This document shows positions 5,535 to 57,014 of a DNA stretch of 64,000 nucleotides, one piece after another. The notes beneath the pieces are model-generated. The model was given only the letters and a program-made list of their open reading frames with translations. It did no database searches and was not told the origin of the DNA. The DNA is from Chitinophagales bacterium (GTDB taxonomy: Bacteria; Bacteroidota; Bacteroidia; Chitinophagales; LD1). Location: assembly GCA_044228065.1 (NCBI GenBank), contig JBGAVP010000006.1:24077-88076 (forward strand), in the 5' to 3' direction. A program made the position numbers and the translations under genes. Each line of letters opens with the position of its first letter. The stretch's first letter is position 1.

Positions 5535-6803
5535 ATGAAAAGAAGTTTATGTACGATAATTAAATGTGTTTTACTCTTCGCACTCCTCCCCAATCTATTG
5601 ATTTCACAATGTTTGACGGGTGGTAGATATTACGATAAACTATTTCAGGTAAAAAGTAACTTGAATATTCAGTATGGTACAGGTTTAACCTTCAACGCTA
5701 CTTATCAGGATTTGTACATGAATGTTTATGAACCCTTAAACGATACCTTAACACCTCAAAGACCGCTTATAGTATTAGCTTTTGGTGGAAGTTTTACTTC
5801 TGGTTTTAAAACAAGCCCTGATATTGTACGCTTATGCAATGAGTTTACGCAAAGAGGTTATGTGACTTGTGCCATTGATTACCGTTTGGGTTTTGAAAAT
5901 GGAAATGACAGTGATACCAACCAGTTTAAGGCTCTGATACGTGGAGTGCAAGATATGAAAGCTTCTGTTCGTTACTTTTATAAAGATGCACAAACTGCAA
6001 AAACATATCGGGTAGATACGAACAAGATTTTTATAGGTGGTGTTTCTGCTGGAGCGTTTATAGCACTAAACTATGCATACGGAAGACTCGATACGCTCTC
6101 CTTTCCTGCACCTGGCTTTGCATTGCCAGCTTTGCTATCGCTTGGTGGTCCGGAGGGTGATAGCGGTAATCCTGGCTACTCTTCTAAAGTGAGTGGCGTA
6201 ATAAATTTATGTGGAGCAATAGCTGATACCGTTTGGATTATGCCATCAGCACCACCACTTTGCGGAGTGCATGGTACCAATGATAGTTTGGTAGCTTGTC
6301 AGTTTGATAGTGCTCATGCTGCTCAGACTGTGGAGTCACGACTATTTGGTGGGTGTGATATAGTACATCGTTTACAGCACATTAACACGAGCAGTTCTTT
6401 CCATATTTTTCAAGGGGCAGGGCATGTGCCTTTTGTTTTGCCGAGTGGACCTTCTACTCCTCCTAGCTCTTATTATATGGATACAACTATTTGGGTGATT
6501 CGTGATTTCTTGTACCGTCAGGTGTGTTATCAAGCTCTGGCGGTAGAAGCTGTAAAAGAAGGCTTGAGTATATCTGTGTATCCTAATCCTAGCAGTGATT
6601 TTGTAAATTTTTCATCACAACAAAACAGTCCACTACAATTGGAAATTTTTGGAGTAGATGGGCGGCTGATGGCACAAAATAGTATTGAAGCAAATGAAAC
6701 GATTACACTTAGCAAACAACAAATAGGAGCAGGTGTTTATATTTATAAATTGACTGATGTAGATTTGGGAACTAATAAAGTAGGAAGGTTAGTATTTTAT
6801 TAA
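5535..6803 (+). CDS. secreted alpha/beta-hydrolase (esterase/lipase-like) with T9SS C-terminal sorting domain
   Basis: Has a signal peptide, a nucleophile-elbow-like GGVSAGA and a T9SS CTD (SVYPNPSSDFVNF...VYIYKL). Confidence 0.7.
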   Translation: MKRSLCTIIKCVLLFALLPNLLISQCLTGGRYYDKLFQVKSNLNIQYGTGLTFNATYQDLYMNVYEPLNDTLTPQRPLIVLAFGGSFTSGFKTSPDIVRLCNEFTQRGYVTCAIDYRLGFENGNDSDTNQFKALIRGVQDMKASVRYFYKDAQTAKTYRVDTNKIFIGGVSAGAFIALNYAYGRLDTLSFPAPGFALPALLSLGGPEGDSGNPGYSSKVSGVINLCGAIADTVWIMPSAPPLCGVHGTNDSLVACQFDSAHAAQTVESRLFGGCDIVHRLQHINTSSSFHIFQGAGHVPFVLPSGPSTPPSSYYMDTTIWVIRDFLYRQVCYQALAVEAVKEGLSISVYPNPSSDFVNFSSQQNSPLQLEIFGVDGRLMAQNSIEANETITLSKQQIGAGVYIYKLTDVDLGTNKVGRLVFY

Positions 6804-23641: not shown

Positions 23642-24621
23642 TCAGATTTCAATTCAAAGATATCGCGATTGTAGATGGCATTTTTCCAATCTACAACATC
23701 ATTTTCTACAGGCAAAATAATAGATAATGGAGTAGTATCTCCTTCAGTATAGTAGTTAATTTGTAAGGCAAAACCAGTAATATCTTTAGTTGTATAATGC
23801 TCGTCCAACTTAGTCAGAATAACACTTTTGCCATCATTGGTAAGTGAATTACCTGATTCTTTCACCATCATCATTTGCATTTCAGGAGTGTATGCAGGTA
23901 TTTTTTTATTGCCTTTGAGATGAATGGAAATTTTGCTCAGATTCTCTTTGGTTGAAACATAATTTACTTCTGCAAAATCGGTAGGTTTTCCAGCTTCTTG
24001 CGTTCCCATTTGAGACAGATATCCAAAAAATCTTTTGTGAGATGTATTCGGAATTAGCACTCTCAGCTCGCCATAAGTGTACGACATTAATTTTTCACCC
24101 GAAAGAAGACTAAAGAGTGAATACGTATTCTCTGACGAATCACCTATAGCATCAGTTTGTGCTATTAAAACCTTGCTAGAGTAGTCAATATCATTAGCTG
24201 TGATCGATTTTTGCCAATCTACTTTCACTTTATTTTTAGAATCCAAACTATTAGCTGAAACCGTGTATGATGCTGTGTTGGCAGCACCTTGTTGCAATAC
24301 TTCACTCTTTACCACTTTGAGTAATAAATCAAACTTATTCTCATTGTCAATCACCGAAACAATATCGTAAGAAGCATTGCTCTTTACAAAAATTGGTTGA
24401 CCATCTTTACCTATATAGGATTGAATAGAAGAAACAGCACTATCTGCAAACTGTTGTTGTGCATCTATTTTTAGGGAAGATTTAGAGGAATTGTTGCAAG
24501 AAGAGGTGAAAAATAACAGACCTAAGACTAATGACGAAAGACCAAGTTTGGAGTTCGAAATCTGAAATCTGACTTCTGAAATCTGACTTTTAAAGTCCGT
24601 CAACTGATTACGCAACTTCAT
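23638..24621 (-). CDS. hypothetical lipoprotein
   Basis: 327-aa ORF with the lipobox LLFFTSSC after an unusually long n-region. It overlaps folD by 14 nt and queE by 4 nt, suggesting an operon. Confidence 0.55.
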
Positions 24622-29217: not shown

Positions 29218-30912
29218 CTAATTTTTAACCACCCACTTAATTCTGGGACTATTTAAATAAGGTGGATAGAAATTGTAAGAAACACAAATTAGCAAATAGT
29301 AAGTTCCTGCTTTGCTGGGTGATTGTATGTTTACTGCCATCTTTTTTTGATTCAAAGCATCTATCAATTTTATGTTGGTAGCACTATCGCTTAGTAAATG
29401 CTTGTTATCATCATAAAAAAGATACCGAATAATGGCACGCTCTTTTAAGTGATTTACGGTATCCGTTAAGTGAAATTCGCAATTTACTTTTTTAAGCTCA
29501 TTTACGCTGCTTGTGTACTCTGTTTGCTCTGGTGTAATTACCACTTTGGAGTAGGAATAAAAACTGTCGCAAACAATTCCCTGATAATTTTCGATTGGGG
29601 TTTTAAACGATTCAAAGCTAATGGCATTGCCAGGAACCATGCCCCACAGCGAATAGAAATAGATTTGTTTGCCTTGAATAGAATCTTCTAAATCTAACAG
29701 ACTGAATTGATTTTTTCGGCCCAAAGCATTGTTTAGCGAAATAGCTACTTTCCCTGTGTAGAACATATATTTAGAAGCCAATTGGTATGAGTTGGCAAAA
29801 ACAACAGGGCGGTCTCCAGCGCGAGATGCTATGGTGTCGGCCCATGCATTATAGTGGTGACAATCGGTGTGAAGATGCAAAGCATCTACAGCTTTGTCGG
29901 AAATTAGTAACACGCGGGCAATAATAAAAATCAATAGAGAAATGGGAGCCAAGTAATAGAGCCATTTTCTTAGAAGACTGTTTTCTGCAAAAGTTTGATA
30001 ACTCAATATTATAAGTGGAAGAGAATTAATGGCTGTCCAATTAGCTTCGGTACGTCCCCTAAAACTACTCACAAAAAAGAACAAATAAACTCCCCACAAA
30101 AGATACTGAAGAGACTTGTGAAATTGTGATTTACTCTTGTTCTTGTAACTGGCGTAAATTAATAGGAATCCAGATGGAATGCCTGCCATAGCTAATTGTG
30201 AGTACAAGTAGTGAAGTGTAAAATCTATGGTATACAATTCGCGCGAACGCTCTTCAAACAAATGAAAACGGTAAGCAATAAAATCGTGTGAATATTGCCA
30301 ATACAGATGCGGCAGAAAAAATACTACACCGATAGCAATAGCTATATAAAATTTTGGGGAGCGCAGCAGTTTTAAATTTGACAGCAAAACAAAACCGAAA
30401 AGCAAAACAGCATGCTCTTTGCTATACAGTAAAAATGCTATTAAAACCCCTAGCAGAAAAGAGTTGAGATAGGTTTCTTCTTCCAAAAAGAATTTATAAA
30501 CCCAGAGAAAACAAGCACTAAAAAAGATAAGAGGAATATCAGGCACTGCGTAAAAAGAGGCTGCTACTAAGGGCGTGCAGCTTAATAGAAGTACTACAAA
30601 TAGTAAATTGTTTTTAGGATTTATTATTTTGTAAAGCACCCAAAAAGTAAGCCCACCCACTATTATAGAAACCAAGCGAACACCTAGTTCATTCTTAAAT
30701 AAACTGTATCCGATGCCTGTAAAAAGCCCAATCATGGGTGGATGATCAAAATAACCCCATGCTGGAAATTGACAATACAGCCAGTAGAGCGCTTCGTCAT
30801 TTATCAATTCTGTATTATATGCGCAAAGGCAGTTGAAAAGCAAGAATAAGCCTAACAATATTTTTAACGAGTCGATATTATTAAGTAATGATTTAATTTT
30901 TGGAAGTAACAT
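29218..30912 (-). CDS. polytopic GT-C glycosyltransferase (family 39 / ArnT / PMT_2-like)
   Basis: The N-terminal signature NDEALYWLYCQFPAWGYFDHPPMIGL, typical of ArnT/PMT_2 enzymes, followed by many TM helices. Confidence 0.7.
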   Translation of the reverse strand: MLLPKIKSLLNNIDSLKILLGLFLLFNCLCAYNTELINDEALYWLYCQFPAWGYFDHPPMIGLFTGIGYSLFKNELGVRLVSIIVGGLTFWVLYKIINPKNNLLFVVLLLSCTPLVAASFYAVPDIPLIFFSACFLWVYKFFLEEETYLNSFLLGVLIAFLLYSKEHAVLLFGFVLLSNLKLLRSPKFYIAIAIGVVFFLPHLYWQYSHDFIAYRFHLFEERSRELYTIDFTLHYLYSQLAMAGIPSGFLLIYASYKNKSKSQFHKSLQYLLWGVYLFFFVSSFRGRTEANWTAINSLPLIILSYQTFAENSLLRKWLYYLAPISLLIFIIARVLLISDKAVDALHLHTDCHHYNAWADTIASRAGDRPVVFANSYQLASKYMFYTGKVAISLNNALGRKNQFSLLDLEDSIQGKQIYFYSLWGMVPGNAISFESFKTPIENYQGIVCDSFYSYSKVVITPEQTEYTSSVNELKKVNCEFHLTDTVNHLKERAIIRYLFYDDNKHLLSDSATNIKLIDALNQKKMAVNIQSPSKAGTYYLLICVSYNFYPPYLNSPRIKWVVKN

Positions 30913-36107: not shown

Positions 36108-37280
36108 TTGTTTTTGGCAAAGCAAGGTATAGCAAGCACATTGGTAGATAAAGAAAAATTTCCTCGCGATAAAATTTGTGGTGATGCACTGAGCGGTAAA
36201 GTAGTGGAAGTTCTTAAAAAGCTAGATGCTAATCTGCTAAAGGAGCTTTATTCCGATGGCAATTTTCTGGGTTCTTATGGTGTAACCTTTGTAGCTCCTA
36301 ATGAACAACGATTACGGGTGCCATTTAAAAAAGAAATCTCTGCTAATTCAACACCTCCTGGTTTTATTGTAAAGCGAATTGATTTTGATGATTGGTTGGT
36401 AGAAAAGGTGCGACAGAATCCGTTGATTACACTTTTAGAGAATACGGAAATTAGAAAGTATGAGAAAGTAGAGGATGTGATTTTAGCACATACAAAGTCT
36501 GATGAAGTAATTCATGCAAAGATTGTGATAGCAGCCGATGGGGCGTACTCTACTTTTGCAAAAACTATTGCAGGTATTGAAACTGAGCCTGCACATAACT
36601 GTTTTGGACTACGTTCTTATTATAAAAATGTGAGTGGGCTCGATCATCAAAATTTCATTGAACTTCATTTCGTAAAAGATTTTTTGCCAGGTTATTTTTG
36701 GATTTTTCCATTACCAAACGGCATGGCAAATGTAGGAGTAGGTATGCGTGCTGACAAAGTACACGAAAAAAAGATTAATTTAAAAAAGGCTTTTGAAAAA
36801 TTGATACAAGAGAATCCTTCTATCAGTAAACGCTTTGCAGGAGCGGAGCAGATAGGAGAGGTGAAGCTGTATGGTTTGCCCCTTGGTTCTAAAAAAAGGA
36901 AACTTTCTGGCGCACATTATTTGCTTACAGGTGATGCTGGTATGCTTATAGACCCGTTTACAGGGGAGGGAATTGGCAATGCTATGATGAGCGGAATGTT
37001 AGCCGCAGAGCAAGCAGGTAAGGCATTAGCTGCAAACGATTTTACTGAACGTTTTATGAAGCAGTATGATGAGGCAGTCTACCATCGTTTGTGGAGCGAA
37101 TTATCGCTCAGTTATAAAATGCAGCAGTTGGTCAATTTCCCTTGGCTCTTTAATTATGTAGTAAAGAAAGCCAATACTAATAAGACATTGAGCGAAACTA
37201 TTTCAGTGATGTTTGAAGATATAGATTTGCGTGCTCGATTAAAAAATCCAATTTTCTATTTCAAACTTTTATTTTCGTAA
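36108..37280 (+). CDS. geranylgeranyl reductase-family FAD-dependent oxidoreductase (annotated start probably too short)
   Basis: GDAGMLIDPFTGEGIGNAM and other GGR-family blocks are present. The Rossmann motif ILIIGAGPAGAATA lies in the same frame upstream of the first canonical start (TTG at 36108). Confidence 0.7.
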   Translation: MFLAKQGIASTLVDKEKFPRDKICGDALSGKVVEVLKKLDANLLKELYSDGNFLGSYGVTFVAPNEQRLRVPFKKEISANSTPPGFIVKRIDFDDWLVEKVRQNPLITLLENTEIRKYEKVEDVILAHTKSDEVIHAKIVIAADGAYSTFAKTIAGIETEPAHNCFGLRSYYKNVSGLDHQNFIELHFVKDFLPGYFWIFPLPNGMANVGVGMRADKVHEKKINLKKAFEKLIQENPSISKRFAGAEQIGEVKLYGLPLGSKKRKLSGAHYLLTGDAGMLIDPFTGEGIGNAMMSGMLAAEQAGKALAANDFTERFMKQYDEAVYHRLWSELSLSYKMQQLVNFPWLFNYVVKKANTNKTLSETISVMFEDIDLRARLKNPIFYFKLLFS

Positions 37281-37293
37281 AAAAAATCTACAA

Positions 37294-37812
37294 ATGAGAA
37301 AACTATTGATATTGACTATTGGTTCATTTTTATTATTGAACACAGCTATTGCCCAAAAGGAACATTGCGACCCAGCAAAGGAATCTAAATTTAAATCGCT
37401 TTCTAAACCTAATAAGGAAGGAGGCTATGGAAAAATAATAAAGAAGACTGGCGCTATTACGGTGGCTGCTTTAGATAAGAAAATGGCTGTTAAGAAAGAG
37501 GCAATGAAAGTTACTATTACAGGAACTGTTCTTAGTGTGTGTAAAGCCAAGGGGTGTTGGATGGGAGTAGACAAAGGGAATGGAGAAAGTATGCGTATTC
37601 GTTTCAAAGATTATGCCTTTTTTGTTCCTAGAGACATAGAAGGGCAAACCTTTACTGCTCAAGGAACAGCTTATTATGATACTACTTCAGTAGAAATGCT
37701 AAAACACTATGCCTCAGATGCTAAAAAACCTCAATCTGAAATAGATGCCATTACAAAACCAGAGATAGAATTATGCTTTACTGCAGAGGGAGTTTTGTTT
37801 GAGAAAAAATAA
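37294..37812 (+). CDS. DUF4920-like secreted protein
   Basis: Has a signal peptide. I recall the core VCKAKGCWMGV...MRIRFKDYAFFVPRD as DUF4920. Confidence 0.55.
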   Translation: MRKLLILTIGSFLLLNTAIAQKEHCDPAKESKFKSLSKPNKEGGYGKIIKKTGAITVAALDKKMAVKKEAMKVTITGTVLSVCKAKGCWMGVDKGNGESMRIRFKDYAFFVPRDIEGQTFTAQGTAYYDTTSVEMLKHYASDAKKPQSEIDAITKPEIELCFTAEGVLFEKK

Positions 37813-38095: not shown

Positions 38096-39664
38096 TTAAA
38101 AAGGTGGAGCTTCATCAAAATCTTCTCTGCCGTGTTTTTTCTCTGCATCAAAATCGTCATTCATTTTAGAAGATATTCTTTTAAAGATGCGTTTTTCATT
38201 TCCAGATTGAACTTCTAGCGTAGAATTTTCTTCATTTTGGAATTCATCGAAGTCAGCAAATTTTGCGAACCTGCCTATGAATTTAGCTTTTACTGTTTTA
38301 AGAGGTCCATTTCTATGTTTCGCAATAATTATTTCTGCTACATCTTTGGTGCTTTGCCCATCCTCATCTTGCGGAATGCCATAGTATTCTCCTCTATAAA
38401 GGAAGATAACAATATCAGCATCTTGTTCTATTGCGCCAGATTCACGCAAATCGGAGAGGATTGGTTTCTTATTGCCACCGCGAGTTTCGGGTGCTCTACT
38501 TAATTGTGAAAGTGCAATTACAGGCACTTGTAGTTCTTTTGCTAAACCTTTTAAGGAACGCGATATCTGAGAAATTTCTTGCTCTCTATTTCCACCTCCT
38601 TTGCCTTCATTAGTGCCACTCATAAGCTGCAAATAATCAATAATAATCATACTGATATCATGCTTCTGTTTTAGCTTTCTACATTTGGAGCGGAGCTCAA
38701 AAATATTCATACCTGGAGTATCATCTATAAATATTTTAGCTTCCCTTAAGAGGTCTATCTTAGAGGTGAGTTGCTGGTACTCGTGTTTCTCCAAATTTCC
38801 TTTCCGAATTTTTTCAGCAGGAATCTCAGATTCCATAGAAATCATTCTTTGAACCAATTGGTTAGATGACATTTCCAATGAGAAAAACGCCACCGCTTTT
38901 TTATGGTCTACTGCTCCATTTCTAGCCAAAGCCAATGTGAAAGCCGTTTTACCCATACCTGGGCGAGCGGCCATTACAATTAAATCTGATTTTTGCCAGC
39001 CGCCAGTAGCTCTATCTAATTCCATAAAACCAGAGGGGACACCATTCAAATGCTCATCACTATTAATTCTCGTATCAATCTCTATCAATTCTTTTTTGAT
39101 GAGAGAGGCTATATCTTCCGATGCTTTTTTAGCGTTATTCTCAGAAATGAGCATCAGATTAGTTTCTGCTTTATCTAGTAACTCAAATACATCAGTAGTG
39201 TCTTCGTATGCATTTTTAATAGTTTCAGTAGAAGATGTGATGAGCATTCGCTGAATGTATTTCTGCGCCACAATCCGAGCATGGTATTCAGCATTAGCAG
39301 CAGAGCCTACTTTATTGGTAAGTTGGGTGACATAAAAGGGACCACCAACTGCTTCTAAATCTCCATTCTTTTTTAGTTGCTCGGTTACAGTTAATAAATC
39401 TATAGGGTGACTGCCACTGTATAAATCTTTAATGGCTTGAAATATTCTTTGATGAGCATCTACATAAAAACTTTCTACTTTAAGTATATCAATTACTTCA
39501 TCAATCACTTTTTCCTCAATCATGATAGCACCTAAGATGGCTTCCTCGAACTCTTTTGCCTGTGGAGGTAACTTACCAAATTCTAAAGCAGAGGTATCTA
39601 CATTTCCCCCTTTTCGGGTAACTATGTCAAATTTCTTCTTGAAGTTTTCTATTTGCTCTGCCAT
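38096..39664 (-). CDS. dnaB: replicative DNA helicase
   Basis: DnaB N-terminal domain (PPQAKEFEEAILGAIM), Walker A (ARPGMGKTAF), IIIDYLQLM and the SQLSR motif. Confidence 0.93.
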   Translation of the reverse strand: MAEQIENFKKKFDIVTRKGGNVDTSALEFGKLPPQAKEFEEAILGAIMIEEKVIDEVIDILKVESFYVDAHQRIFQAIKDLYSGSHPIDLLTVTEQLKKNGDLEAVGGPFYVTQLTNKVGSAANAEYHARIVAQKYIQRMLITSSTETIKNAYEDTTDVFELLDKAETNLMLISENNAKKASEDIASLIKKELIEIDTRINSDEHLNGVPSGFMELDRATGGWQKSDLIVMAARPGMGKTAFTLALARNGAVDHKKAVAFFSLEMSSNQLVQRMISMESEIPAEKIRKGNLEKHEYQQLTSKIDLLREAKIFIDDTPGMNIFELRSKCRKLKQKHDISMIIIDYLQLMSGTNEGKGGGNREQEISQISRSLKGLAKELQVPVIALSQLSRAPETRGGNKKPILSDLRESGAIEQDADIVIFLYRGEYYGIPQDEDGQSTKDVAEIIIAKHRNGPLKTVKAKFIGRFAKFADFDEFQNEENSTLEVQSGNEKRIFKRISSKMNDDFDAEKKHGREDFDEAPPF

Positions 39665-39878
39665 GGTGTAATTCTTTTAAGGGGGGACAAAAATTACCTT
39701 TCAAAGTCGAATTCCGAAGGAAAAGGTAGTAATTATTTTCGAACATCTATTAACAGTCTATTCACAAAATAGAGCTGATGTAATTTCTTCGAAACGTAGG
39801 CAGGGCTTAATAGCCAGAATAGCTATGTGTATAAATATAAATATCTAATTATGGGAAAAAGGGCGAGAAAATCTTATT

Positions 39879-40370
39879 TTAAAGCAATAATAATTCGCCT
39901 AGTCTAAAGAAAACCTCTTCTACCCCTAAATCTTCTTTGGCACTACAAAAGAAATCAGGTTTTGTTGGCATCATTTTCTTTACATTTTCGGTTTCTACTG
40001 CATTTAGTAAATCACATTTATTAGCAGCAATTACTAGAGGTACACCAGGTAATTTACTTTTAAGAAACGCAAGATCTTCATTCATATTTAAGAATGAAGG
40101 TGGAGCTGATATGTCTACTACATAAATGATTCCACTAGAGCCCAGAAAATAAGATTGGGGTGTATTTTGCTGACTGCTTTCACCTGCCAAATCCCAAATA
40201 ATTAAGTTTAGAATATTATCCTTAATGGTGATTTGTTTTTTATCAATTCTAACTCCAATGGTAGAAATGTATTGCTCAGAAAACCTATGATGTACATAAC
40301 GATTTACCATAGACGTTTTTCCCACATTCACATTTCCTACTAGGATTATTTTCTTACTTTGTTCAGTCAT
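39879..40370 (-). CDS. Ras-superfamily (Rab-like) small GTPase
   Basis: G1 GNVNVGKTS, a switch I YISTIGV identical to the Rab consensus, G3 WDLAGE, G4 NKCD, G5 CSAK. 163 aa. Confidence 0.8.
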   Translation of the reverse strand: MTEQSKKIILVGNVNVGKTSMVNRYVHHRFSEQYISTIGVRIDKKQITIKDNILNLIIWDLAGESSQQNTPQSYFLGSSGIIYVVDISAPPSFLNMNEDLAFLKSKLPGVPLVIAANKCDLLNAVETENVKKMMPTKPDFFCSAKEDLGVEEVFFRLGELLLL

Positions 40371-41196
40371 GATTTATGAAATGATTTTCTAGATTTAATG
40401 AGATTTGCTTTTGCACCTCGCTCGTTACATTTTTTATACCCTCTTTTAAATAATTAGTTACAAAGGCATCTGCTTTTTCTTGTAATTTAGATTTAAAGTC
40501 TGCTCCAGCTATACCAGAAACTACAAATGCCATTTTAAAAGTGTAGTAATCTAACAATAAAATTTTATTGTTTTCATATTCTATGGTGCTCAATGTCTGG
40601 TTTTGCTTATGAAAAGCATCTTCTACAAACGATTTGATGGCAGTAAGCATTCCCGCTATCATATCTTGATCTGATAAATCATTTTTAGAATAGCTGCCTA
40701 AAAGCAAACCAGAATCGTTTTGGATTACAAAAATTTCTTCGATACTGGCTTTGTTTAACTCGCTTAAAATAATGGAGGAACTATCTGCTCCAGAGAAAAA
40801 GGCTTTTACTCTGTGAATCCAAATATCTAAATCAAAAGTGGTGGAAATTTGATTATCTATAGATTCCGTTAACTTCTCGAGTTCAGCTTGTAGATATTTC
40901 TTGATAAGTTTGCCGATTATAGGATAGAGCGAATTGATAACTTCATCTTGAGAGTCTTTTAACTCGCGTTGAATAGCATCTTTCAGTTCTCCTTTAAACT
41001 CTAAACTAAAATTTTTCTTGAGGTAGTCAATTTTAGCTTGTGCAAAGGGTTCTACTTTGTTTCCGAAATTTTCTGGCACTAATAATTCATCCTTCAATCG
41101 CTCCAATTCCGTTTCGATAGAAAGACTTAATTTACGGTCATCTTCTAGTAAGATAGCTCGTAAAGTTTCTAATGCTTGTTCTTTTTCGGCAAACAT
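40363..41196 (-). CDS. coiled-coil protein with a C-terminal Roadblock/LC7 (MglB-like) domain
   Basis: The C-terminal half (IEEIFVIQNDSGLLLGSYS...MIAGMLTAIKSFVEDAF...ILLLDYYTFKMAFVVSG) follows the Roadblock strand/helix pattern. Its stop overlaps the GTPase start by 8 nt. Confidence 0.5.
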   Translation of the reverse strand: MFAEKEQALETLRAILLEDDRKLSLSIETELERLKDELLVPENFGNKVEPFAQAKIDYLKKNFSLEFKGELKDAIQRELKDSQDEVINSLYPIIGKLIKKYLQAELEKLTESIDNQISTTFDLDIWIHRVKAFFSGADSSSIILSELNKASIEEIFVIQNDSGLLLGSYSKNDLSDQDMIAGMLTAIKSFVEDAFHKQNQTLSTIEYENNKILLLDYYTFKMAFVVSGIAGADFKSKLQEKADAFVTNYLKEGIKNVTSEVQKQISLNLENHFINHD

Positions 41197-41204
41197 GAAA
41201 TTGT

Positions 41205-41537
41205 TTAAGAAGAGATTTTTTCTCCTATGTCCATGAGCATTTTACCCAATTTCTTGCGGTCTAATTTTTTCTCATCAATCTTAGCTAACTCTTCCAAGAG
41301 TTTTTGCTGATTGCTTTCCATTTTAGCATTTAGTTTTTTATCTAAATCATCTATGGCTTTGCGAACTGCCGTAAATTCTTTGTCTATAGCATTTAGATTG
41401 GTGTTTATATAATCGCGTAAATCATTAAATTCTTTATCATACTGGCGCATGTTTTGCCCGAAGATGATTTCTTTGATGGCATCAATTTTTGCAATTTCAT
41501 TTGCTGCAGGATCTGCGGATTTGTTTTCTTTTCCCAT
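41205..41537 (-). CDS. small coiled-coil protein
   Basis: 110-aa charged, heptad-like ORF immediately upstream of the Roadblock-like gene, 8 nt away. Confidence 0.5.
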   Translation of the reverse strand: MGKENKSADPAANEIAKIDAIKEIIFGQNMRQYDKEFNDLRDYINTNLNAIDKEFTAVRKAIDDLDKKLNAKMESNQQKLLEELAKIDEKKLDRKKLGKMLMDIGEKISS

Positions 41538-41610
41538 GTTAAAATTTTAATGCAATAAATCTATGTCATTTTTTAAATTAATTCAACTTTATATTTGTAT
41601 AAAAAAGTAA

Positions 41611-42165
41611 ATGGCATTGACTCCTTCTAATATGATGGCACTGGGAACTTTAGCGCCAGATTTTTTATTACCCGATACCGTGAGTGGAAAATTAATGGGG
41701 TTAAAGGACTCAAAGGCAGAACTAGCAACCGTTTTGTTTTTTATTTGTAATCATTGTCCTTATGTAAAACACATACAAAAAGAGTTGGTAAACTTGGCAA
41801 ATGACTATTCTAGCAAGGGAGTTGGTTTTATAGCTATCAATTCAAACGATGCTGAAAAATATCCCGAGGACAGTCCAGAAAAAATGCAGCAAGTAGCCAA
41901 AGAATTCAGCTATTCTTTTCCGTATTTATTTGACGAAAACCAAGCTGTGGCTAAGTCTTACGAAGCTGCTTGTACTCCCGATTTTTATATTTTTGATAAA
42001 GAATTGAAATTGACATATCGTGGACAACTAGATGATTCGCGTCCAGGAAATACTGTTCCTTTGAGTGGTAAAGATATTCGTGCAGCACTGGATGCTATGC
42101 TAAGAGGAGAGAAGCCATCGCCTTTTCAGCGACCAAGTATTGGGTGTAATATTAAATGGAAATAG
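41611..42165 (+). CDS. thioredoxin-fold thiol-disulfide oxidoreductase (AhpC/TSA-redoxin-like)
   Basis: CNHCPYV CxxC motif in a thioredoxin-like context. 184 aa. Confidence 0.75.
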   Translation: MALTPSNMMALGTLAPDFLLPDTVSGKLMGLKDSKAELATVLFFICNHCPYVKHIQKELVNLANDYSSKGVGFIAINSNDAEKYPEDSPEKMQQVAKEFSYSFPYLFDENQAVAKSYEAACTPDFYIFDKELKLTYRGQLDDSRPGNTVPLSGKDIRAALDAMLRGEKPSPFQRPSIGCNIKWK

Positions 42166-44812: not shown

Positions 44813-47800
44813 ATGGCAACAACAAAAGGACCAGAGACACCTGTAACAAAGACAGAGGATTTAAATTTAATAATGAATCGTTTTTCAGGAAAAGTTGAAG
44901 TGTTGAATCCAAGCGGTTCGGGAGTGATTTCTGCTGCAGGTTATTTTTTAGATGTATATGCCAGCACAATTAGTATCACTTTTGATAAAGCCTATTCTCC
45001 AATAGGTAACAGTATCATGCTTTCAGATGATGGTAGTTTCACATTCGATGCTACAGCTACTAATTTATCATCAGCCTCTGTAACTTTTGTAGTGCGATCA
45101 GCTAATGGTTTACCTGCTACTATTGTCTCTGGCAATGCTACCGTGAATAACATTTTCAAAAAAGGCGGTGCGTTTGTATTGCAAGTAAAGCCATACAGTC
45201 CTATGAATTTGGGTAGTGGAACATCTACACCTTCTAATAAAGTTTTAGTAAAAGGCAAAGCTATATATGATGATGGAGAGGTAGTAAAAGAAAAAAGGAT
45301 TGTTCTTTATGCTAAAAATGGGGATACTACTGATACCACGGTGCTTACACTTGAAACAGTAAAAACTCAACCCAATGGAGAGTTTAAAGTATTGGTAGCA
45401 AACACAAAGTTTAGAGATGCGTTTGCTGTTTTGGGTGATAGAGATAATAGTAATACTTGTGTAATCCCATTGGATAATGCTGGGAAGTTTAACAATAAAT
45501 TGATTTTAGTATTTCAAAATAAAATGGAAAGTGATGAGGATTGCGCTTGTACTGATAAAACGCCTCGACTACCCGATGCAGATGATTTGATAAGTCCTGA
45601 AAATAAGTATTCACAAGATATAGGAGGGAATTGTGTGAATTTTACAACACCTAACAGAAGTCTAGAAGAGTTTACTTTTTCATCTATTGTACGTACTACA
45701 GACCCGCGTGGCGAATACACTGCTATGACCAAAGAAGCCATAGCAGAAGAATGGGATGGAAATACTGCTAATACTGCAAATTTTAAAAAGTATTTAGATA
45801 AAACCTTGCGTCAGTCGCTCACCAAAAAAAATCAGTTAGAGTGGGATCATCCTGACAAAAAATTTTCCATTTATCAAGCACTCACAATTGCACATGGACA
45901 TGTACTCACTTTTAAACAAGTTTTTAAATCTGATGGTTATAGTATGGGCGATTTGGTTTATTCGCTTCCGCTTGCTCCTGGGCAAAAAAAATTGATTGTG
46001 ACCTACGATTGGAATAGAGTAGATGAAGCAACTAAAATAGATGATTTAACAGCTGAAGATAGACTAACTGCGAGCATTAGTCGTGACAGAGATATTGATG
46101 AAATTATTTCTGGTTCACTTAGTGAAGATGTAAAAGGAGGGAGTAAAAGCAAAACAAGTGGATGGAGTGTAGGTGGTGGAGTTTCTGCGCCTGCTGTTGG
46201 GCCTGTTTCGGTTTCGGTGAGTGGCGGGTATAATTCTGGTAAAGCGTCTTCTGAGTCTTGGCAGCAGTCTTCCAAAGACATGACCTCTAGTCTGCATAAT
46301 AAATTGAAAGATTCGACACAGCAAAGTTCTTCGATGTTGCGCAGTCAAAGGAATACGGTAATAGCTACTGCCAAACAAGGTGAGTCATATTCAGTTACCT
46401 CAGAAGTAGTTGCCAATCACAATCATTGCCATGCCGTTACTATGCAATATTTTCAAGTTTTGCGACATATTGTTGTAGAACAAGAATTGAGCGATGTACA
46501 AGAGTGTTTGTTTGTTCCACTAACCATAGCACCTTTTGATGCAAAAAAGGTTTTGCGTTGGAGACAATCACTTCAGAATAATTTGCGGTTAAATCGTTTT
46601 TCAAAACTAGGGAAAGAATTGCAAAAGGGCTTTGATTCCATGGAACGAATAGATAAAAATTACGTAAACTTTGATGTGCCTCCAGTAGTATCAGACAGTA
46701 AGATTCGAGAAGTTTATGGAAGTTTTAAGTTGCGTTTAAATTTAAATCGTCCACAAGATAAATCCATAGCTGATTCTCAGTTTGGGCCAGCATTTCAACA
46801 AGCCCTTCAAAGTGATAATTTCATGTCTGAAATGGTGCAGCGTTCACTGATGAATTACCAAGATGTGAATGAAGCAAATTGGACTAGTTACAGTCGTTAT
46901 TTTTCTTCGTTCAGTGTGGAGTCTATCAAGTCACTTTTTACTGGAAAATCGCAAATAGAGCGCGACACTATTTTTTATGAACAAATAGCACCTGAAATTG
47001 CTGAGAATTATGTCCAAAAATTGATGCTAACAGGTATGGCACAAAACATAAATTTTGTAGGGTTTTCAATAGATGGGAAATGGAAGAAAGGGGAAGATTT
47101 AAACATAAGGATTAATACCATTGTCCCTAAAAATGGAACTTCAATAGTTTTGAAACGTAGTGATATCCCTAATCTTCAGATTATTACTAAACTAAATGAG
47201 CCACATATAGATTCACAAGTTACTTCTGGGTATATCAATTATAGAACATCACATTATAATGGGGTTTTTACTAATTATATTTCAGGAAGTACACGTTCTA
47301 TAGATCCTCAAATAGGAGCTTTTGTTTACACTCCTTTGAAACCTGAAGAATCGTTTGATTTTAAGAAAGAAGATATTAGGCTCTCAACCCAATTGCTAGA
47401 TCACATGAATAATGAGAATTTAGAATATTACCATCATGTGATTTGGTATCATGGGATTACTCCAGATAGGCGCTATATGATGTTAGATAGAATTCAATTA
47501 GATAGCCCCGATTTTACACAAGTATATGCTGAACGCGGGGTATTGGGCAGAAGTGTGGCATCTTTGGTAGAAAATAGAATTATTGCGTTGGTTGGAAACT
47601 GTTTGGTGTTTCCTGTAGCTGCTGGCTATAACCTAGACCCAACTTATAAACTAAAAGATAGTGACACAGCCGATGAAAGTGGCATGTCTTTTAATTCGTT
47701 GTTAGAGCATTACCAACCTATTTCTGAAACTGATGGGAATTACAAACCTAGTTATAGAATTAGTATTCCTACTCCAGGTGTGTTTGCTGAAGCAGTGATG

Positions 47801-48598
47801 GGAGCTTGTAATTCTTGTGAAAAAGTAGATGACAGCCGTTTTTGGCAATGGGAAGACCACCCGATAGATGAGCCAACTGCTATCAATCCAATAGATACTA
47901 GCAGTCGTTATCAAAATCCTTTAAATACTCAAGGAAGAGATTTTTCTACACCTGTTATTAACATTCAAAATTCACCAGCAGCACCTGACCCTACAAATAT
48001 GGCTGGGGTATTTGATTTACTCGGAAAGTCAGGGACATTTAAAGATATTACTGGCACTGATGCTACCAATGCTAATGCCATGGGAGCATTGAATGCTGCA
48101 AATAGTCTTGCTAAAGCTAATGGAGATAATGCTACCAAATTAGCATCGGAAGCATTGAAAGAGGGGCTTTTTAGTCAAAACAAGATGGCTACCATGAAAA
48201 ATGCTACCAAAAATATGGCTAAAGGAGAAGATTATATTGATAGAAATTGGCCAGCAAAAGATTTTCCTGAAAAGAATAAGGAACTAAAAGAAAAATTATT
48301 CAATTCCGTATTAGGCGGAGACCCTCTGGGAGGTAAGAAAGACCCAAGTAAAAACGGTGGTAGCACCGATGACAACAATAGTGGTGGTAGTACTGATGAT
48401 GAGAATGGCGGAAGTAGTGGAGATACTGGTACCAGTAATGCAGCACCAGGGCAAAAATCATTAGCAGAAATTTTATCTGGAATGCAAGGTGAATTGGATG
48501 ATTTCAGAAATCGGTATGTACATGATATGGGAGATTACATTGCAGGTATTGATACTAGTGGTTTTCCAAACGATTCTAATCCCACTAATGTAGTATAA
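44813..48598 (+). CDS. 1261-aa protein of unknown family (no export signal), first gene of the candidate protease operon
   Basis: Long uninterrupted ORF with an N-terminal Ig/CarboxypepD_reg-like beta-sandwich region, a Gly/Ser-rich central segment, a His/Cys cluster (NHNHCH) and an acidic low-complexity C-terminal tail. No signal peptide, TM helix or T9SS CTD. Confidence 0.8.
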   Translation: MATTKGPETPVTKTEDLNLIMNRFSGKVEVLNPSGSGVISAAGYFLDVYASTISITFDKAYSPIGNSIMLSDDGSFTFDATATNLSSASVTFVVRSANGLPATIVSGNATVNNIFKKGGAFVLQVKPYSPMNLGSGTSTPSNKVLVKGKAIYDDGEVVKEKRIVLYAKNGDTTDTTVLTLETVKTQPNGEFKVLVANTKFRDAFAVLGDRDNSNTCVIPLDNAGKFNNKLILVFQNKMESDEDCACTDKTPRLPDADDLISPENKYSQDIGGNCVNFTTPNRSLEEFTFSSIVRTTDPRGEYTAMTKEAIAEEWDGNTANTANFKKYLDKTLRQSLTKKNQLEWDHPDKKFSIYQALTIAHGHVLTFKQVFKSDGYSMGDLVYSLPLAPGQKKLIVTYDWNRVDEATKIDDLTAEDRLTASISRDRDIDEIISGSLSEDVKGGSKSKTSGWSVGGGVSAPAVGPVSVSVSGGYNSGKASSESWQQSSKDMTSSLHNKLKDSTQQSSSMLRSQRNTVIATAKQGESYSVTSEVVANHNHCHAVTMQYFQVLRHIVVEQELSDVQECLFVPLTIAPFDAKKVLRWRQSLQNNLRLNRFSKLGKELQKGFDSMERIDKNYVNFDVPPVVSDSKIREVYGSFKLRLNLNRPQDKSIADSQFGPAFQQALQSDNFMSEMVQRSLMNYQDVNEANWTSYSRYFSSFSVESIKSLFTGKSQIERDTIFYEQIAPEIAENYVQKLMLTGMAQNINFVGFSIDGKWKKGEDLNIRINTIVPKNGTSIVLKRSDIPNLQIITKLNEPHIDSQVTSGYINYRTSHYNGVFTNYISGSTRSIDPQIGAFVYTPLKPEESFDFKKEDIRLSTQLLDHMNNENLEYYHHVIWYHGITPDRRYMMLDRIQLDSPDFTQVYAERGVLGRSVASLVENRIIALVGNCLVFPVAAGYNLDPTYKLKDSDTADESGMSFNSLLEHYQPISETDGNYKPSYRISIPTPGVFAEAVMGACNSCEKVDDSRFWQWEDHPIDEPTAINPIDTSSRYQNPLNTQGRDFSTPVINIQNSPAAPDPTNMAGVFDLLGKSGTFKDITGTDATNANAMGALNAANSLAKANGDNATKLASEALKEGLFSQNKMATMKNATKNMAKGEDYIDRNWPAKDFPEKNKELKEKLFNSVLGGDPLGGKKDPSKNGGSTDDNNSGGSTDDENGGSSGDTGTSNAAPGQKSLAEILSGMQGELDDFRNRYVHDMGDYIAGIDTSGFPNDSNPTNVV

Positions 48599-54956: not shown

Positions 54957-57014
54957 TTATTTAGTAATAACCAATTGTTTAGTGGCAGTTTTTTCGCCAT
55001 TTACAATTTTCACAAAATAGCTTCCATTAGCTAAATCGCTCATATTGTATGTTTTGTTGAAATTGCCATTAGCTGTTTCATTGTAGCTTTTTACTTCAGA
55101 ACCTAAAATGTTGTAAACTCTTACAGTAAAATCACCTTTTAATCCATCAGCTTTGATATTTAAAATACCAGAAGTTGGGTTTGGAACAAAAGAAACATTT
55201 GTAATATCAGCAACATCATTGATTCCAACACCTTGTACACCTTTAATGCTTACGATTTTACAAGTTTGTGTAGATTGTCCACCAGAAACGACCGTTAAAC
55301 AAACATTGTATGAAGTATCTTTTCCTGTACTAGGGAATGCGTAATTTACAGTTTGACCAATAGCAGTGTCACCATTTCCAAAATTCCAATAGAAACTTGC
55401 AGGGCTGTTGTTAGCGCTACCAGTGAACTTAACACTTTGCTCTGCTTTTACTGTTCCGAAACCTGGAGTTCTAGAGAAATCACAAGTTAATAGATTAGCA
55501 CCGTGTCCGAAGTTAACACGCATAAATGGAACTAAGCTATTATCCAAAACGAAACCATTGGTATTGCTAGCAGGAGTTGTAGTGGATGTAATATCAATTG
55601 CTCCTACACCACCGTTAGCTACAGCTGAAGTTACATACAAGATATTGCTGTCAGTACTTACATACTCTAAAGAAACTAAATAAATACCTATTGGTAATAC
55701 GCTATTTCCAGATTTAGGGTCAATGCGCATATTTACAGTTTTGAAAGCATTAGTCACTAATTCAGATGCTAATACTTTTCTTACAGATGTAGAACATACA
55801 TATTGTACCGTCAATACACCAGCACCAATTGAGTTTTCATCTACTTTATAAACTACTGCTTTTACTTGGCTATTAGGTACTGTACTGATAGTAAAACCAG
55901 CACCAGCTCCCCAGAATGCAGTTGCAACAGAAGTTACAGTATCAGGATTTACTACTTCAATTAAAGAACCCGCTCTGATAGTTAAACCTTGAGAAGCTCT
56001 GTAAAGAGATACTCCTCCTAAATTTGCACCTGTTGTAACAGAATAAATAGAGTCAGTAACATTAAAAGTTAAGGTATCTGAATTGTTGTAAGGGGTAAAG
56101 TCTACTGAATCTGAAGATGAATTTACTATAGCAGTATATGCTGCTATGCCAGTAGGAAGATACGCTCCATTGATAGAAACAAATGTATCTGCTCCAGCAG
56201 CTAATGCCAAAGGAGTAGAATTAGCAGTAAATACAGTGGCTGCTGCTTTTTTTACATTTACAGTAGCTTTTGTGTTTGGTTGTGTTGTTTTACCGTCATT
56301 TAAAATGCCAGCACCAAAACTAATAGAATCTTGTTGTGATAACGGATACGCAGCATAAGCATTTCCTAATGTTCCACTTAATGCTAATGCATTTGTTTGA
56401 ACTAAATCATTGTTTGGAGATTCAATTAAGTTGATATCATCTATCATCCAATAGTAGTAATCACCTTTAAATGTAAAACGAATCCATACTTTTGGTTGAT
56501 TAGCAGCTACAGAAGAGATATCTAAGCTAATAGCAGTAGGGTTAGCAGAAGCATCATTTACATCTACATCTGTATGAATAGTATCGCTTTTCCAAGTTAA
56601 ACTATCTTTACTGTATGATACAATATGAGTTGCTTGAAACTGACGCATAGAGCTACTAAAAGTCAGTTTTACTTTTGAATACCCAGTACAGCTAATAGCG
56701 GAAGAGGTTAAACTAGCATTGTGAGGTGCAGCTGCAGTACCAGTACCACCTGCGGTAGCACCCTCATCATAGAAATCAGAGTCAAAAAGCATAAATCCAT
56801 TTGCTTTTGTAGCAGAATTGATAACATTACCACTAGAGTAACCACCTTGGGTTCCCGTAGTAGAATAGGTCCAAATTGCAGCAGTAGGGATACCGCTATT
56901 TGTCCAACCAGCAGGAATACCGCCAGCAAAATCTTGGCTGTAAATAACAGCCTGTGCTTGTAATTGAATCCATCCGGACGCCAAAACAAGGGCAAGTGTA
57001 AAGAGTTTTTTCAT
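54957..57014 (-). CDS. T9SS-secreted surface protein (choice-of-anchor-J-like N-domain, PKD domain, T9SS CTD)
   Basis: Has a signal peptide, IYSQDFAGGIPAGWTN, a PKD-like FYWNFGNGDTAIGQTVNYAF and the CTD FVPNPTSGILNIKA...GSYFVKIVNGEK. Confidence 0.75.
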   Translation of the reverse strand: MKKLFTLALVLASGWIQLQAQAVIYSQDFAGGIPAGWTNSGIPTAAIWTYSTTGTQGGYSSGNVINSATKANGFMLFDSDFYDEGATAGGTGTAAAPHNASLTSSAISCTGYSKVKLTFSSSMRQFQATHIVSYSKDSLTWKSDTIHTDVDVNDASANPTAISLDISSVAANQPKVWIRFTFKGDYYYWMIDDINLIESPNNDLVQTNALALSGTLGNAYAAYPLSQQDSISFGAGILNDGKTTQPNTKATVNVKKAAATVFTANSTPLALAAGADTFVSINGAYLPTGIAAYTAIVNSSSDSVDFTPYNNSDTLTFNVTDSIYSVTTGANLGGVSLYRASQGLTIRAGSLIEVVNPDTVTSVATAFWGAGAGFTISTVPNSQVKAVVYKVDENSIGAGVLTVQYVCSTSVRKVLASELVTNAFKTVNMRIDPKSGNSVLPIGIYLVSLEYVSTDSNILYVTSAVANGGVGAIDITSTTTPASNTNGFVLDNSLVPFMRVNFGHGANLLTCDFSRTPGFGTVKAEQSVKFTGSANNSPASFYWNFGNGDTAIGQTVNYAFPSTGKDTSYNVCLTVVSGGQSTQTCKIVSIKGVQGVGINDVADITNVSFVPNPTSGILNIKADGLKGDFTVRVYNILGSEVKSYNETANGNFNKTYNMSDLANGSYFVKIVNGEKTATKQLVITK

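Follow-up and report, generated by a model that had tools for sequence, protein, structure and literature searches.

A reduced Group 1 Rup locus in a Chitinophagales bacterium pairs a Rab-like small GTPase with a partner predicted to carry a Roadblock/longin fold

Prokaryotic small GTPases have been divided into an MglA family, which is coupled to MglB, and a Rup family, the partners of which are of unknown fold (Wuichet & Søgaard-Andersen 2014, Genome Biol Evol 7:57, PMC4316618). Group 1 of the Rup family, which comprises the prokaryotic GTPases nearest to eukaryotic Rab, Ras, Rho and Ran, has Ras-like G1-G5 motifs that keep the G3 Asp and lack the G3 Gln, and its genes lie beside those for a coiled-coil protein, a protein with an unknown domain that often bears an inner-membrane helix and OmpA, and an output protein (PMC4316618). 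This last is a GGDEF/EAL protein or a histidine kinase, the N-terminal region of which contains an invariant Gln that was suggested to act in trans (PMC4316618). Table S2 of the same paper has 27 Group 1 members; the six from Bacteroidetes all encode GTPases of 161-165 amino acids (aa) in the arrangement DUFY>DUFX>Rup and are free of OmpA fusions. DUFX is given no fold there (PMC4316618), and we found no publication assigning one, subscription journals being outside the scope of the search. Here we examine a three-gene locus (39879..41537) in a 64,000-nucleotide (nt) stretch of a Chitinophagales genome (assembly GCA_044228065.1, contig JBGAVP010000006.1, forward-strand positions 24,077 to 88,076), referred to below as the window. 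On the basis of gene order, G motifs and GTPase length, with the Table S2 members compared as locus tags, the locus is a Group 1 Rup system, and an earlier note that presented its GTPase and partner as a new pair is to be corrected in that respect, the arrangement having been catalogued as DUFY>DUFX>Rup (PMC4316618). The window system is a reduced, lineage-specific form of the kind described in 2014, to which the present analysis adds a predicted fold for DUFX and a fuller picture of what feeds into the relay and what it drives.

Three open reading frames (ORFs) of the same orientation, all in the ORF list for the minus strand, make up the locus. They encode, in order, a helical protein of 110 aa (DUFY, 41205..41537) that is rich in Lys, Asp and Glu, a 277-aa partner (DUFX, 40363..41196) in which a helical N-terminal half precedes a C-terminal domain with a predicted Roadblock/longin fold, and a Rup-type, Rab-like small GTPase of 163 aa (39879..40370). 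An 8-nt gap (41197-41204) separates the 110-aa gene from the partner gene, and the stop of the partner gene overlaps the start of the GTPase gene by 8 nt, ATGACTGA (40363..40370, ORF list and translation), such that the partner frame ends AAT CAT GAC TGA and the GTPase frame begins ATG ACT GAA, the stop lying inside the first GTPase codons. Both the overlap and the gap are thus as the earlier note had read them. Partner and GTPase frames also overlap in 56 of 76 related loci, by 8 nt in 11 of these, counts that follow a longest-ORF start rule and may be inflated by it. Because the GTPase matches Pfam Ras, because GTPase and partner have many homologues and because the gene order recurs in relatives, we take the three ORFs, from their sequences, to be real genes and not chance frames; the recurrence of the order also bears out the proposal of a compact unit that is conserved.

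The GTPase matches Pfam Ras (PF00071) with E 4.9e-30 (104.7 bits, cut-off 21.6), as well as Roc (1.2e-23), Arf (3.9e-18) and the NCBIfam model small_GTP (1.5e-18). Searching the sequences of the PDB gives 908 distinct chains at E<=0.001, with Rab7 at the top (3.8e-21), and the best 60 of these 908 are all Rab/Ypt/Sec4 proteins. Among 602 candidate homologues 546 reach E<=0.001, several of which are called "Rab family GTPase" by NCBI. The genome holds six PF00071 matches, of which this GTPase is the sole short stand-alone frame, the other five (E 1.9e-6 to 3.1e-4) lying in frames of 324-909 aa. The complete set of Ras-type motifs that had been proposed is present: the P-loop GNVNVGKT (G1; 40314..40337; residues 12-20 when written GNVNVGKT(S)), switch I YISTIGV with the G2 residue Thr37 (residues 34-40, 40251..40271), G3 DLAGE (40179..40193, within WDLAGE at residues 59-64), G4 NKCD (residues 117-120) and G5 SAK (residues 143-145). 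A Val occupies the P-loop position that we take to be that of Ras Gly12; relatives mostly have Phe there, as in GHFGVGK[TS], which is found in 33 of the 74 members of a set composed of the window GTPase and 73 complete neighbours of partner genes, three open-ended copies having been dropped. The switch I sequence is identical to that of Rab1-type proteins, and its T-I-G is shared with Rab7 in the alignment of the two. Members of the bacterial family most often have LTTIGV (16/74) or ITTIGV (13/74), ISTIGV occurring in 2/74, and Thr37, Gly39 and Val40 are invariant or nearly so in 44 members.

Glu64 stands in the place of the catalytic Gln, as the earlier note had claimed, and this is the usual state of the family: the residue after DxxG in the 74 members is Glu in 43, Lys in 7, Asn in 4, Gln in 4, Asp in 3, Phe in 3, Gly in 2, Leu in 2, Val in 1 and Thr in 1, with 4 unparsed. 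MglA proteins are recognised by a G3 motif TVPGQ or GTPGQ that has no Asp and, in MglA Group 1, by an Arg finger beside the G2 Thr (PMC4316618), and the window GTPase, with DLAGE and with Ser-Thr-Ile around Thr37, shows neither feature. Retention of the G3 Asp and of the NKxD Asp, absence of the G3 Gln and the exclusively Rab/Ypt/Sec4 character of those best 60 PDB matches all agree with the view, already put forward from the letters, that the protein is Rab- or Rup-like rather than MglA-like. A hallmark of Rab proteins is a C-terminal Cys prenylation motif (PMC10933270). The window protein ends in GELLLL and has Cys at positions 119 and 142 only, so that no C-terminal Cys is present and, as far as sequence can tell, the GTPase is Rab-like without being a prenylated Rab.

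Comparison with the published Group 1 systems reveals agreement in the gene order DUFY > DUFX > Rup, which the window shares with the Bacteroidetes rows of Table S2, in GTPase length and in Ras-like G motifs without the G3 Gln, the G3 Asp being present and Glu64 taking the place of the Gln. The window partner has no fusion to OmpA or to an inner-membrane helix; this does not exclude membership, since the paper says 'often' of the fusion and its six Bacteroidetes entries are likewise without one (PMC4316618). A profile of the partner finds 18 places in 17 of the 401 genomes sampled from the phylum, namely four short forms (281-311 aa) and 14 long forms (578-738 aa), and one hydrophobic helix just past the Roadblock domain is present in 14/14 long forms and 0/4 short forms. 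OmpA is found in 6/6 and BON in 2/6 of the long forms that were scanned. In addition, a search for longer homologues returned 91 at E<=1e-5, mostly with BON and OmpA, many of them from Nostoc, Microcoleus and Oscillatoria. It is because these long homologues carry a transmembrane (TM) helix and OmpA, and extend into cyanobacteria as described in the paper, that we identify the window partner with DUFX. The published systems differ from that of the window in possessing a 'fourth highly conserved gene' for a signalling protein with an invariant-Gln N-terminal domain (N-domain), for which there is no counterpart at the locus or in a search of the genome.

No Pfam or NCBIfam family covers the partner, sub-threshold matches being the most that is seen, and the ESM Atlas returns only its own clusters, unnamed or mis-named. 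The family is nevertheless large, with 1357 homologues at E<=0.001 among 4130 candidates; those among the 120 matches listed are 176-294 aa long and carry no precomputed Pfam domain. Names clash within this list, where 4/120 are "Roadblock/LC7/MglB family" according to JGI, others are "cell envelope biogenesis protein OmpA" and three are "hemerythrin". The OmpA domain (PF00691) has no match in the 277-aa protein, and the OmpA name of the short proteins seems to have been carried over from the long forms with TM helix, BON and OmpA.

A Roadblock-like C-terminal domain had been suggested from the order of strands and helices, with structure prediction as the proposed check, and this check gave the Roadblock/longin fold. 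The full-length AlphaFold2 (AF2) model has an overall predicted local distance difference test score (pLDDT) of 62.4 and still displays an alpha-beta-beta-alpha-beta-beta-beta-alpha unit at residues 139-249, which in Foldseek resembles Ragulator, MglB, dynein LC7 and Mon1-Ccz1. When residues 136-277 (142 aa; 40366..40791, minus strand) are refolded alone with 126 sequences, pLDDT rises to 85.2 with a predicted template modelling score (pTM) of 0.81, and the domain is modelled as alpha-beta-beta-alpha-beta-beta-beta-alpha-alpha. Foldseek matches this model to LAMTOR2/p14, TRAPP Bet5, Mon1-Ccz1, MP1, MglB and an Asgard Roadblock protein with E 1.3e-5 to 4.5e-4 (2.9e-4 for MglB) and probability 1.00. 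In VIA-align, run against 48,161 chains, 50 of the top 50 entries are Roadblock/longin proteins (Z 11.4-7.9). They include MON1A-CCZ1 (Z 11.4, root-mean-square deviation (rmsd) 3.2, 131 aligned), the Asgard Roadblock proteins 9jue (Roadblock3; Z 11.0, rmsd 2.5, 101 aligned) and 7yh1 (Z 10.3), the MglB structures 6hjm (Z 10.1, rmsd 3.1, 105 aligned) and 3t1r (Z 10.0), and a Streptomyces Roadblock/LC7 domain, 3kye (Z 9.8). Sequence identity in the structural matches is 6-18%. Moreover, hhalign of the partner profile against a canonical Robl_LC7 profile from the same phylum, for which 18 of 25 recovered full ORFs were aligned, places 91 columns in register from beta1 to beta5 (E 3e-4, probability 39.8%). 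These models indicate that the C-terminal domain of the partner has a Roadblock/longin fold and that its membership in the sequence family is distant. The assignment for DUFX is an addition of this analysis, as far as predicted structures carry it, and some automatic annotations had hinted at Roadblock. Canonical Robl_LC7 genes also exist elsewhere in Bacteroidota, in 20/201 sampled genomes, often 2-6 per genome and in adjacent pairs (loci L113-L142 of our numbering).

The N-terminal region of the partner (residues 1-135; 40792..41196) is helical in the AF2 model, at pLDDT 40-74, with low-confidence helices at 2-39, 41-66, 68-80 and 86-117. Its most conserved motif, SQDEVINSLYPIIGKLIKKYL... 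(residues 82-114; 40855..40953), has invariant P92 and G95, with S82, D84, E85, L90, Y91, I93, I98 and K100 at 90% or more in an alignment of 46 sequences, and is retained across 126 sequences that include the long forms. In the C-terminal domain the only invariant polar residues of the family (46 sequences) are Asp176 and Asp178 of the DQD motif at the start of helix alpha2 (40663..40671, alignment and translation); they are conserved in at least 90% of the 126 sequences, and neither alignment contains an invariant Arg, Gln or Asn. The partner has no hydrophobic segment (maximum Kyte-Doolittle value 1.47).

Prediction of a complex of two copies of partner residues 120-277 with the GTPase, GTP and Mg gave scores of 0.55, 0.54 and 0.58, with 0.00 for the best control, which is a weak pass. 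The mark used was reached by 116/157 solved complexes and 2/215 mismatched pairs, although only 18/157 solved complexes, together with both passing mismatches, did so with a score of 0.60 or below, and this calibration employed neither custom alignments nor ligands, unlike the run for GTPase and partner. Between runs at least 87% of contacts are the same, and the pLDDT of the partner is 88 or higher. The pass may reflect likeness to known complexes, since MglA-MglB complexes have been solved. We regard the putative binding of the partner to the GTPase as likely, a view based mainly on the predicted fold and on the way in which the two genes are kept together.

The best explanation of the locus is, in our estimate, that it is a reduced, three-gene copy of a Group 1 Rup system in which the helical DUFY accompanies a DUFX of Roadblock/longin fold that regulates the Rab-like GTPase, an account we hold to be rather probable. 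On this account the partner would dimerise through its Roadblock domain, as its structural relatives do, and bind the switch face of the GTPase, thereby setting nucleotide state and location. A role as exchange factor or anchor appears preferable to one as GTPase-activating protein (GAP), because the partner family has no invariant polar residue besides Asp176 and Asp178, with Gln and Asn invariant in the N-domain of the fourth gene, and because the long forms, with a cytoplasmic Roadblock domain, one helix and periplasmic BON/OmpA, resemble trans-envelope receptors, as would suit an upstream activator. An acidic finger is typical of guanine nucleotide exchange factors (GEFs), Sec7 and Vps9 among them, and a Gln or Asn finger is typical of the TBC and Rap GAPs. 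In most relatives the same core is part of a larger relay, the partner being anchored in the inner membrane with periplasmic BON/OmpA or accompanied by a separate peptidoglycan-binding protein encoded upstream, and the fourth-gene N-domain, with its invariant Gln and Asn and mostly fused to a histidine kinase, would be the likelier GAP and effector. In the clade of the window, loss of the anchor and of the fourth gene would leave GTP hydrolysis to the GTPase's own Glu64, and the GTPase would signal to a partner that is not encoded alongside; the Q61E variant of Ras has been reported to hydrolyse GTP faster than the wild type. A more detailed and speculative version, which we consider unlikely as a whole, would make DUFX a Roadblock/longin-type GEF that acts on the Rab-like GTPase by means of Asp176/Asp178 and the Gln/Asn N-domain a GAP in trans as well as effector, with self-timing through Glu64 in the window clade. 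Were it true, the pairing of a Rab-type GTPase with a longin/Roadblock GEF, as in Mon1-Ccz1, TRAPP and DENN, would already exist as an operon in bacteria.

The wider relay was examined in the best 80 of 553 confirmed loci from species-representative genomes, all of which are from Bacteroidota (Chitinophagales, Saprospiraceae, Cyclobacteriaceae/Roseivirga and Flavobacteriaceae). Behind the partner gene, 76/80 loci have a GTPase homologue, and contig ends truncate at least two of the other four; immediately ahead of it, 70/80 encode a homologue of the 110-aa protein (single-sequence phmmer, E<=1e-3). The 110-aa protein itself has sub-threshold, coiled-coil-type Pfam matches only and no hydrophobic segment. 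The N-domain of the fourth gene was first defined from the initial 150 residues of seven fourth genes in the sampled genomes, in which Gln113 and Asn116 are invariant (7/7 aligned sequences), and a later model was built from 66 sequences. A fourth gene with this domain follows the GTPase in 66/80 loci, to which the better model adds one (L092). Cultured species with the four-gene form include Flavobacterium croceum DSM 17960 (L076), Flavobacterium ponti (L097) and Roseivirga spongicola (L073). According to Pfam, the 66 comprise 48 histidine kinases with HATPase_c, many also with receiver and Hpt domains, one protein with HisKA only, one SpoIIE phosphatase, one with PAS only at a contig end and 15 with no Pfam domain; 11 of these 15 are just 131-200 aa (one being cut at a contig end), the complete ones constituting stand-alone N-domains. 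Loci of the long form have as their fourth gene a sigma-54 activator (three adjacent and one more nearby) or a kinase, and the neighbours of the module in relatives are, in general terms, histidine kinases and sigma-54 activators. With stand-alone N-domains, sigma-54 activators and a SpoIIE phosphatase, the output gene is more varied than the GGDEF/EAL or histidine kinase reported in 2014, examples being L045:5854-6282, L068, L075, L081, L111 (Saprospiraceae), L028:4902-6656, L029:11255-12649 and L078:5811-7070. The N-domain as such has no Pfam match; the ESM Atlas places it near PAS-fold clusters (0.90-0.91, fewer than 170 shared features), which we treat as a lead only.

A PG_binding_1 protein of 208-238 aa with an N-terminal membrane helix is encoded upstream in 34/80 of these short-form loci and is directly adjacent in 33, and placement of its gene directly upstream of that for the helical protein (L025:7721-8350 and 33 further loci among L038-L094) makes a five-gene unit. 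Where the long forms are linked to the envelope through a fused OmpA domain, the PG_binding_1 lineages retain this link in the form of a gene of its own. The distribution of the module is patchy: apart from its presence in those 17/401 genomes of the phylum, it occurs in 0/3 other genera of the window's own family.

The copy in the window has no membrane or OmpA anchor, no upstream peptidoglycan-binding gene and no fourth gene at the locus, where dnaB follows instead (38096-39664, minus strand, DnaB_C 3.9e-108, starting after 214 nt). The fourth-gene N-domain was not found anywhere in this 100%-complete genome with the 66-sequence model (best E 0.13), and the best result of the seven-sequence model, E 0.0078 on an 88-aa frame, was taken as chance. 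In a tree of 85 partner sequences, namely that of the window, 78 complete short forms and six long forms as outgroup (the fragment L036 and the open-ended L104 being excluded), the window groups with three loci from metagenome-assembled genomes (L033, L034 and L035) at a Shimodaira-Hasegawa-like approximate likelihood ratio test (SH-aLRT) value of 100, and all four are without a fourth gene; the root is unsure on account of the long outgroup branches. The partners of these three loci are 53-59% identical to that of the window. A dnaB gene follows the GTPase in L033 and L035, the two that were scanned, and the AhpC-like gene on the other side is confirmed in L033. Because the other members of the clade also lack the fourth gene and the two scanned share the dnaB neighbour, the reduced arrangement is inherited and not a recent break. 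Another locus without a fourth gene, L037, lies nearby in the tree, on which there are two or more changes of this state. Glu follows DxxG in 7/7 loci without an N-domain match under the first model, compared with 35/66 where the fourth gene is present, a difference that is a hint only, the seven being close kin and including L092, later found to have the N-domain.

An unlinked homologue of the PG-binding protein is present in the same genome (E 1.4e-26; G000:C34:88328-89011, locus L143:6326-7012, minus strand), and directly upstream of it lies a PAS-HisKA-HATPase kinase (L143:7064-8614) without the Gln/Asn N-domain. This protein was considered as a partner in trans and set aside on account of its inconsistent co-occurrence with the module in five related genomes, of which one has both, one has the gene alone, one the module alone and two neither.

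The regulatory account given above competes with three others. The partner might be a GAP of MglB type that triggers hydrolysis in a GTP-bound Rup protein without a catalytic Gln, which we regard as a serious minority possibility. The structures that match the partner domain include MglB, with the Z, rmsd and Foldseek values already given, and no other bacterial Roadblock protein among them has been solved in complex with a GTPase. The overlap of stop and start codons would fit a stoichiometric pair, a GTPase that lacks the catalytic Gln is what such a model expects, and the complex prediction (0.55 against 0.00 for the control) is equally compatible with it. MglB, however, positions the Gln and the Arg finger that belong to MglA itself (PMC4316618), and the window GTPase has neither, Glu64 replacing the one and Ser36 and Ile38 flanking the G2 Thr; nor does the partner family have an invariant Arg, Gln or Asn to donate. 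Furthermore, the authors of the 2014 paper named the Gln of the fourth-gene N-domain as the likely residue acting in trans (PMC4316618), and this Gln, with an Asn, is also invariant in our alignment.

Alternatively, partner and helical protein could be purely a platform that scaffolds or localises the GTPase, much as Ragulator serves the Rag GTPases or coiled-coil tethers serve Rabs, and that leaves the nucleotide state unchanged, with regulators and effector encoded elsewhere. That Foldseek ranks LAMTOR/Ragulator subunits highest for the partner domain, that long helices abound in the partner and the 110-aa protein, that relatives tether the partner to membrane and peptidoglycan in the manner of a location device, and that the genome has an unlinked peptidoglycan-binding homologue beside a PAS histidine kinase are all consistent with this idea. 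The near-invariant DxD-AGML helix and the LYPIIGK motif, on the other hand, are conserved beyond the need of a passive tether, and the unlinked gene co-occurs inconsistently with the module in the five related genomes, so that we consider a pure platform distinctly unlikely. A decaying, non-working remnant of a four- or five-gene system, as the absence of anchor, fourth gene and upstream peptidoglycan-binding gene from the locus might suggest, seems to us very improbable: the three frames are intact and retain every GTPase motif, the three-gene state is maintained in the three further loci of the clade (with their diverged partners and, in the two scanned, the dnaB neighbour), and six short metatranscriptome contigs fall on all three genes, carry-over of DNA being possible in their case.

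Several observations weigh against the preferred account of a Roadblock/longin-fold DUFX that regulates the Rab-like GTPase. The fold assignment comes from predicted structure and one moderate profile-profile match. Pfam Robl_LC7 (PF03259) finds no match at E<=1 in the partner or anywhere in the genome, and the partner profile has no significant match among PDB sequences (best E 0.18; an AP-4 sigma (longin) chain is reached at a non-significant E 0.32 over residues 190-247). The poorly modelled N-terminal half of the partner (pLDDT 40-74) may, judging from the model, hold the true GTPase interface, and the complex prediction was a weak pass that came without contacts. As to function, the acidic-finger case for a GEF role is an analogy to eukaryotic GEFs, and the nearest bacterial analogue, MglB, is a GAP, which by the same kind of reasoning would favour the GAP view. 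Glu is the commonest residue after DxxG also where the fourth gene is present (35/66) and thus is not specific to the reduced clade. Finally, the 2014 paper states that no Rup protein had been characterised (PMC4316618), and we found no later paper on Rup systems in the open literature, subscription journals again being outside the search.

The closest bacterial comparison is with MglA-MglB of Myxococcus xanthus and Thermus thermophilus, where the gene for a small Ras-superfamily GTPase also stands beside one for a Roadblock-fold protein and on whose MglB the partner domain superposes. The window GTPase nevertheless has DLAGE in place of TVPGQ/GTPGQ and no Arg beside the G2 Thr, and its partner has a helical N-terminal half of 135 aa and two extra C-terminal helices and is missed by Pfam Robl_LC7. 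The four-gene relatives combine a GTPase, a Roadblock-fold protein and a histidine kinase in an operon, as do the actinobacterial conservons (CvnA-D / Mfp); this analogy was also drawn by the authors of the 2014 paper, according to whom conservon GTPases are MglA Group 2 proteins that occur with a DUF742 protein (PMC4316618), whereas kinase and DUF742 genes are both absent from the window. With respect to eukaryotic Rab proteins and their longin/Roadblock regulators, the likeness is on both sides of the pair, Rab/Ypt/Sec4 being the best PDB matches of the GTPase and Mon1/Ccz1, the TRAPP longin subunits and LAMTOR2/MP1 those of the partner, although the window GTPase lacks the C-terminal prenylation Cys and the catalytic Gln and the partner is a single gene, presumably acting as a homodimer, with a match identity of 6-18%. 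Asgard archaea likewise have Rab-like GTPases together with Roadblock proteins (PMC10933270), a prokaryotic co-occurrence from which the Asgard structures 9jue and 7yh1 are among the best matches here; the window locus differs in being bacterial and a conserved operon with its own accessory proteins.

The Roadblock/longin fold is used by MglB, Ragulator, TRAPP and Mon1-Ccz1 to hold and regulate small GTPases. If DUFX has this fold, one ancient fold for handling GTPases would accompany the MglA and Rup families alike, and bacteria would possess an equivalent of the Rab-longin partnership, with cultured strains from which to purify it. Reconstitution should be simplest with the three-gene form, and the three-, four- and five-gene forms offer a direct comparison of which component gives hydrolysis and which gives exchange.

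Transcription of the locus is weakly indicated by six contigs of 165-255 nt (depth 2-4, 0-12 differences) from four metatranscriptome libraries of three studies, which lie on all three genes and for which carry-over of DNA is possible. None of the six bridges a gene junction by at least 31 nt on both sides, and the dnaB and AhpC-like flanks are without cover, so that the contigs are uninformative as to co-transcription. At least half of the sampled words of the stretch occur in each of 14 DNA runs, mostly labelled as wastewater, activated sludge or bioreactor metagenomes, one of which is possibly the source of the DNA. A promoter and terminator scan of 39400-41900 gave 6 promoter-like sites where 10.0 would be expected by chance and 2 terminator-like sites where the expectation is 1.4, which is uninformative, and the sigma-70 consensus may not suit the phylum. 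Base composition gives no sign of foreign origin when the GC content of the locus (0.33) is compared with that of the window (0.32-0.40). Past the 110-aa gene lies an AhpC/TSA-type redoxin gene on the plus strand (41611-42165). Beyond dnaB are genes, both on the plus strand and with no apparent link to the module, for a DUF4920 protein (37294-37812, 1.1e-30) and a geranylgeranyl-reductase-like FAD protein (36108-37280), and on the other side a plus-strand ORF of 1261 aa (44813-48598) has no Pfam match at E<=1e-5.

The earlier note had placed the locus in a gliding lineage that bears the type IX secretion system (T9SS). As to the lineage this holds, the genome encoding GldM at two loci (best E 3.9e-96) and containing 122 matches to T9SS sorting domains. 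A connection of the locus itself with gliding or T9SS does not follow, as no GldM or sorting-domain gene adjoins the module, T9SS is much more widespread in the phylum than the module (17/401), and the genes that neighbour the module in relatives encode kinases and transcription activators. Elsewhere in the window there are three matches to the T9SS C-terminal sorting domain, at about 1775-2008 (minus strand), 6576-6761 (plus strand) and 54966-55184 (minus strand), positions converted from C54:25851-26084, 30652-30837 and 79042-79260, in frames of 532, 440 and 686 aa, respectively.

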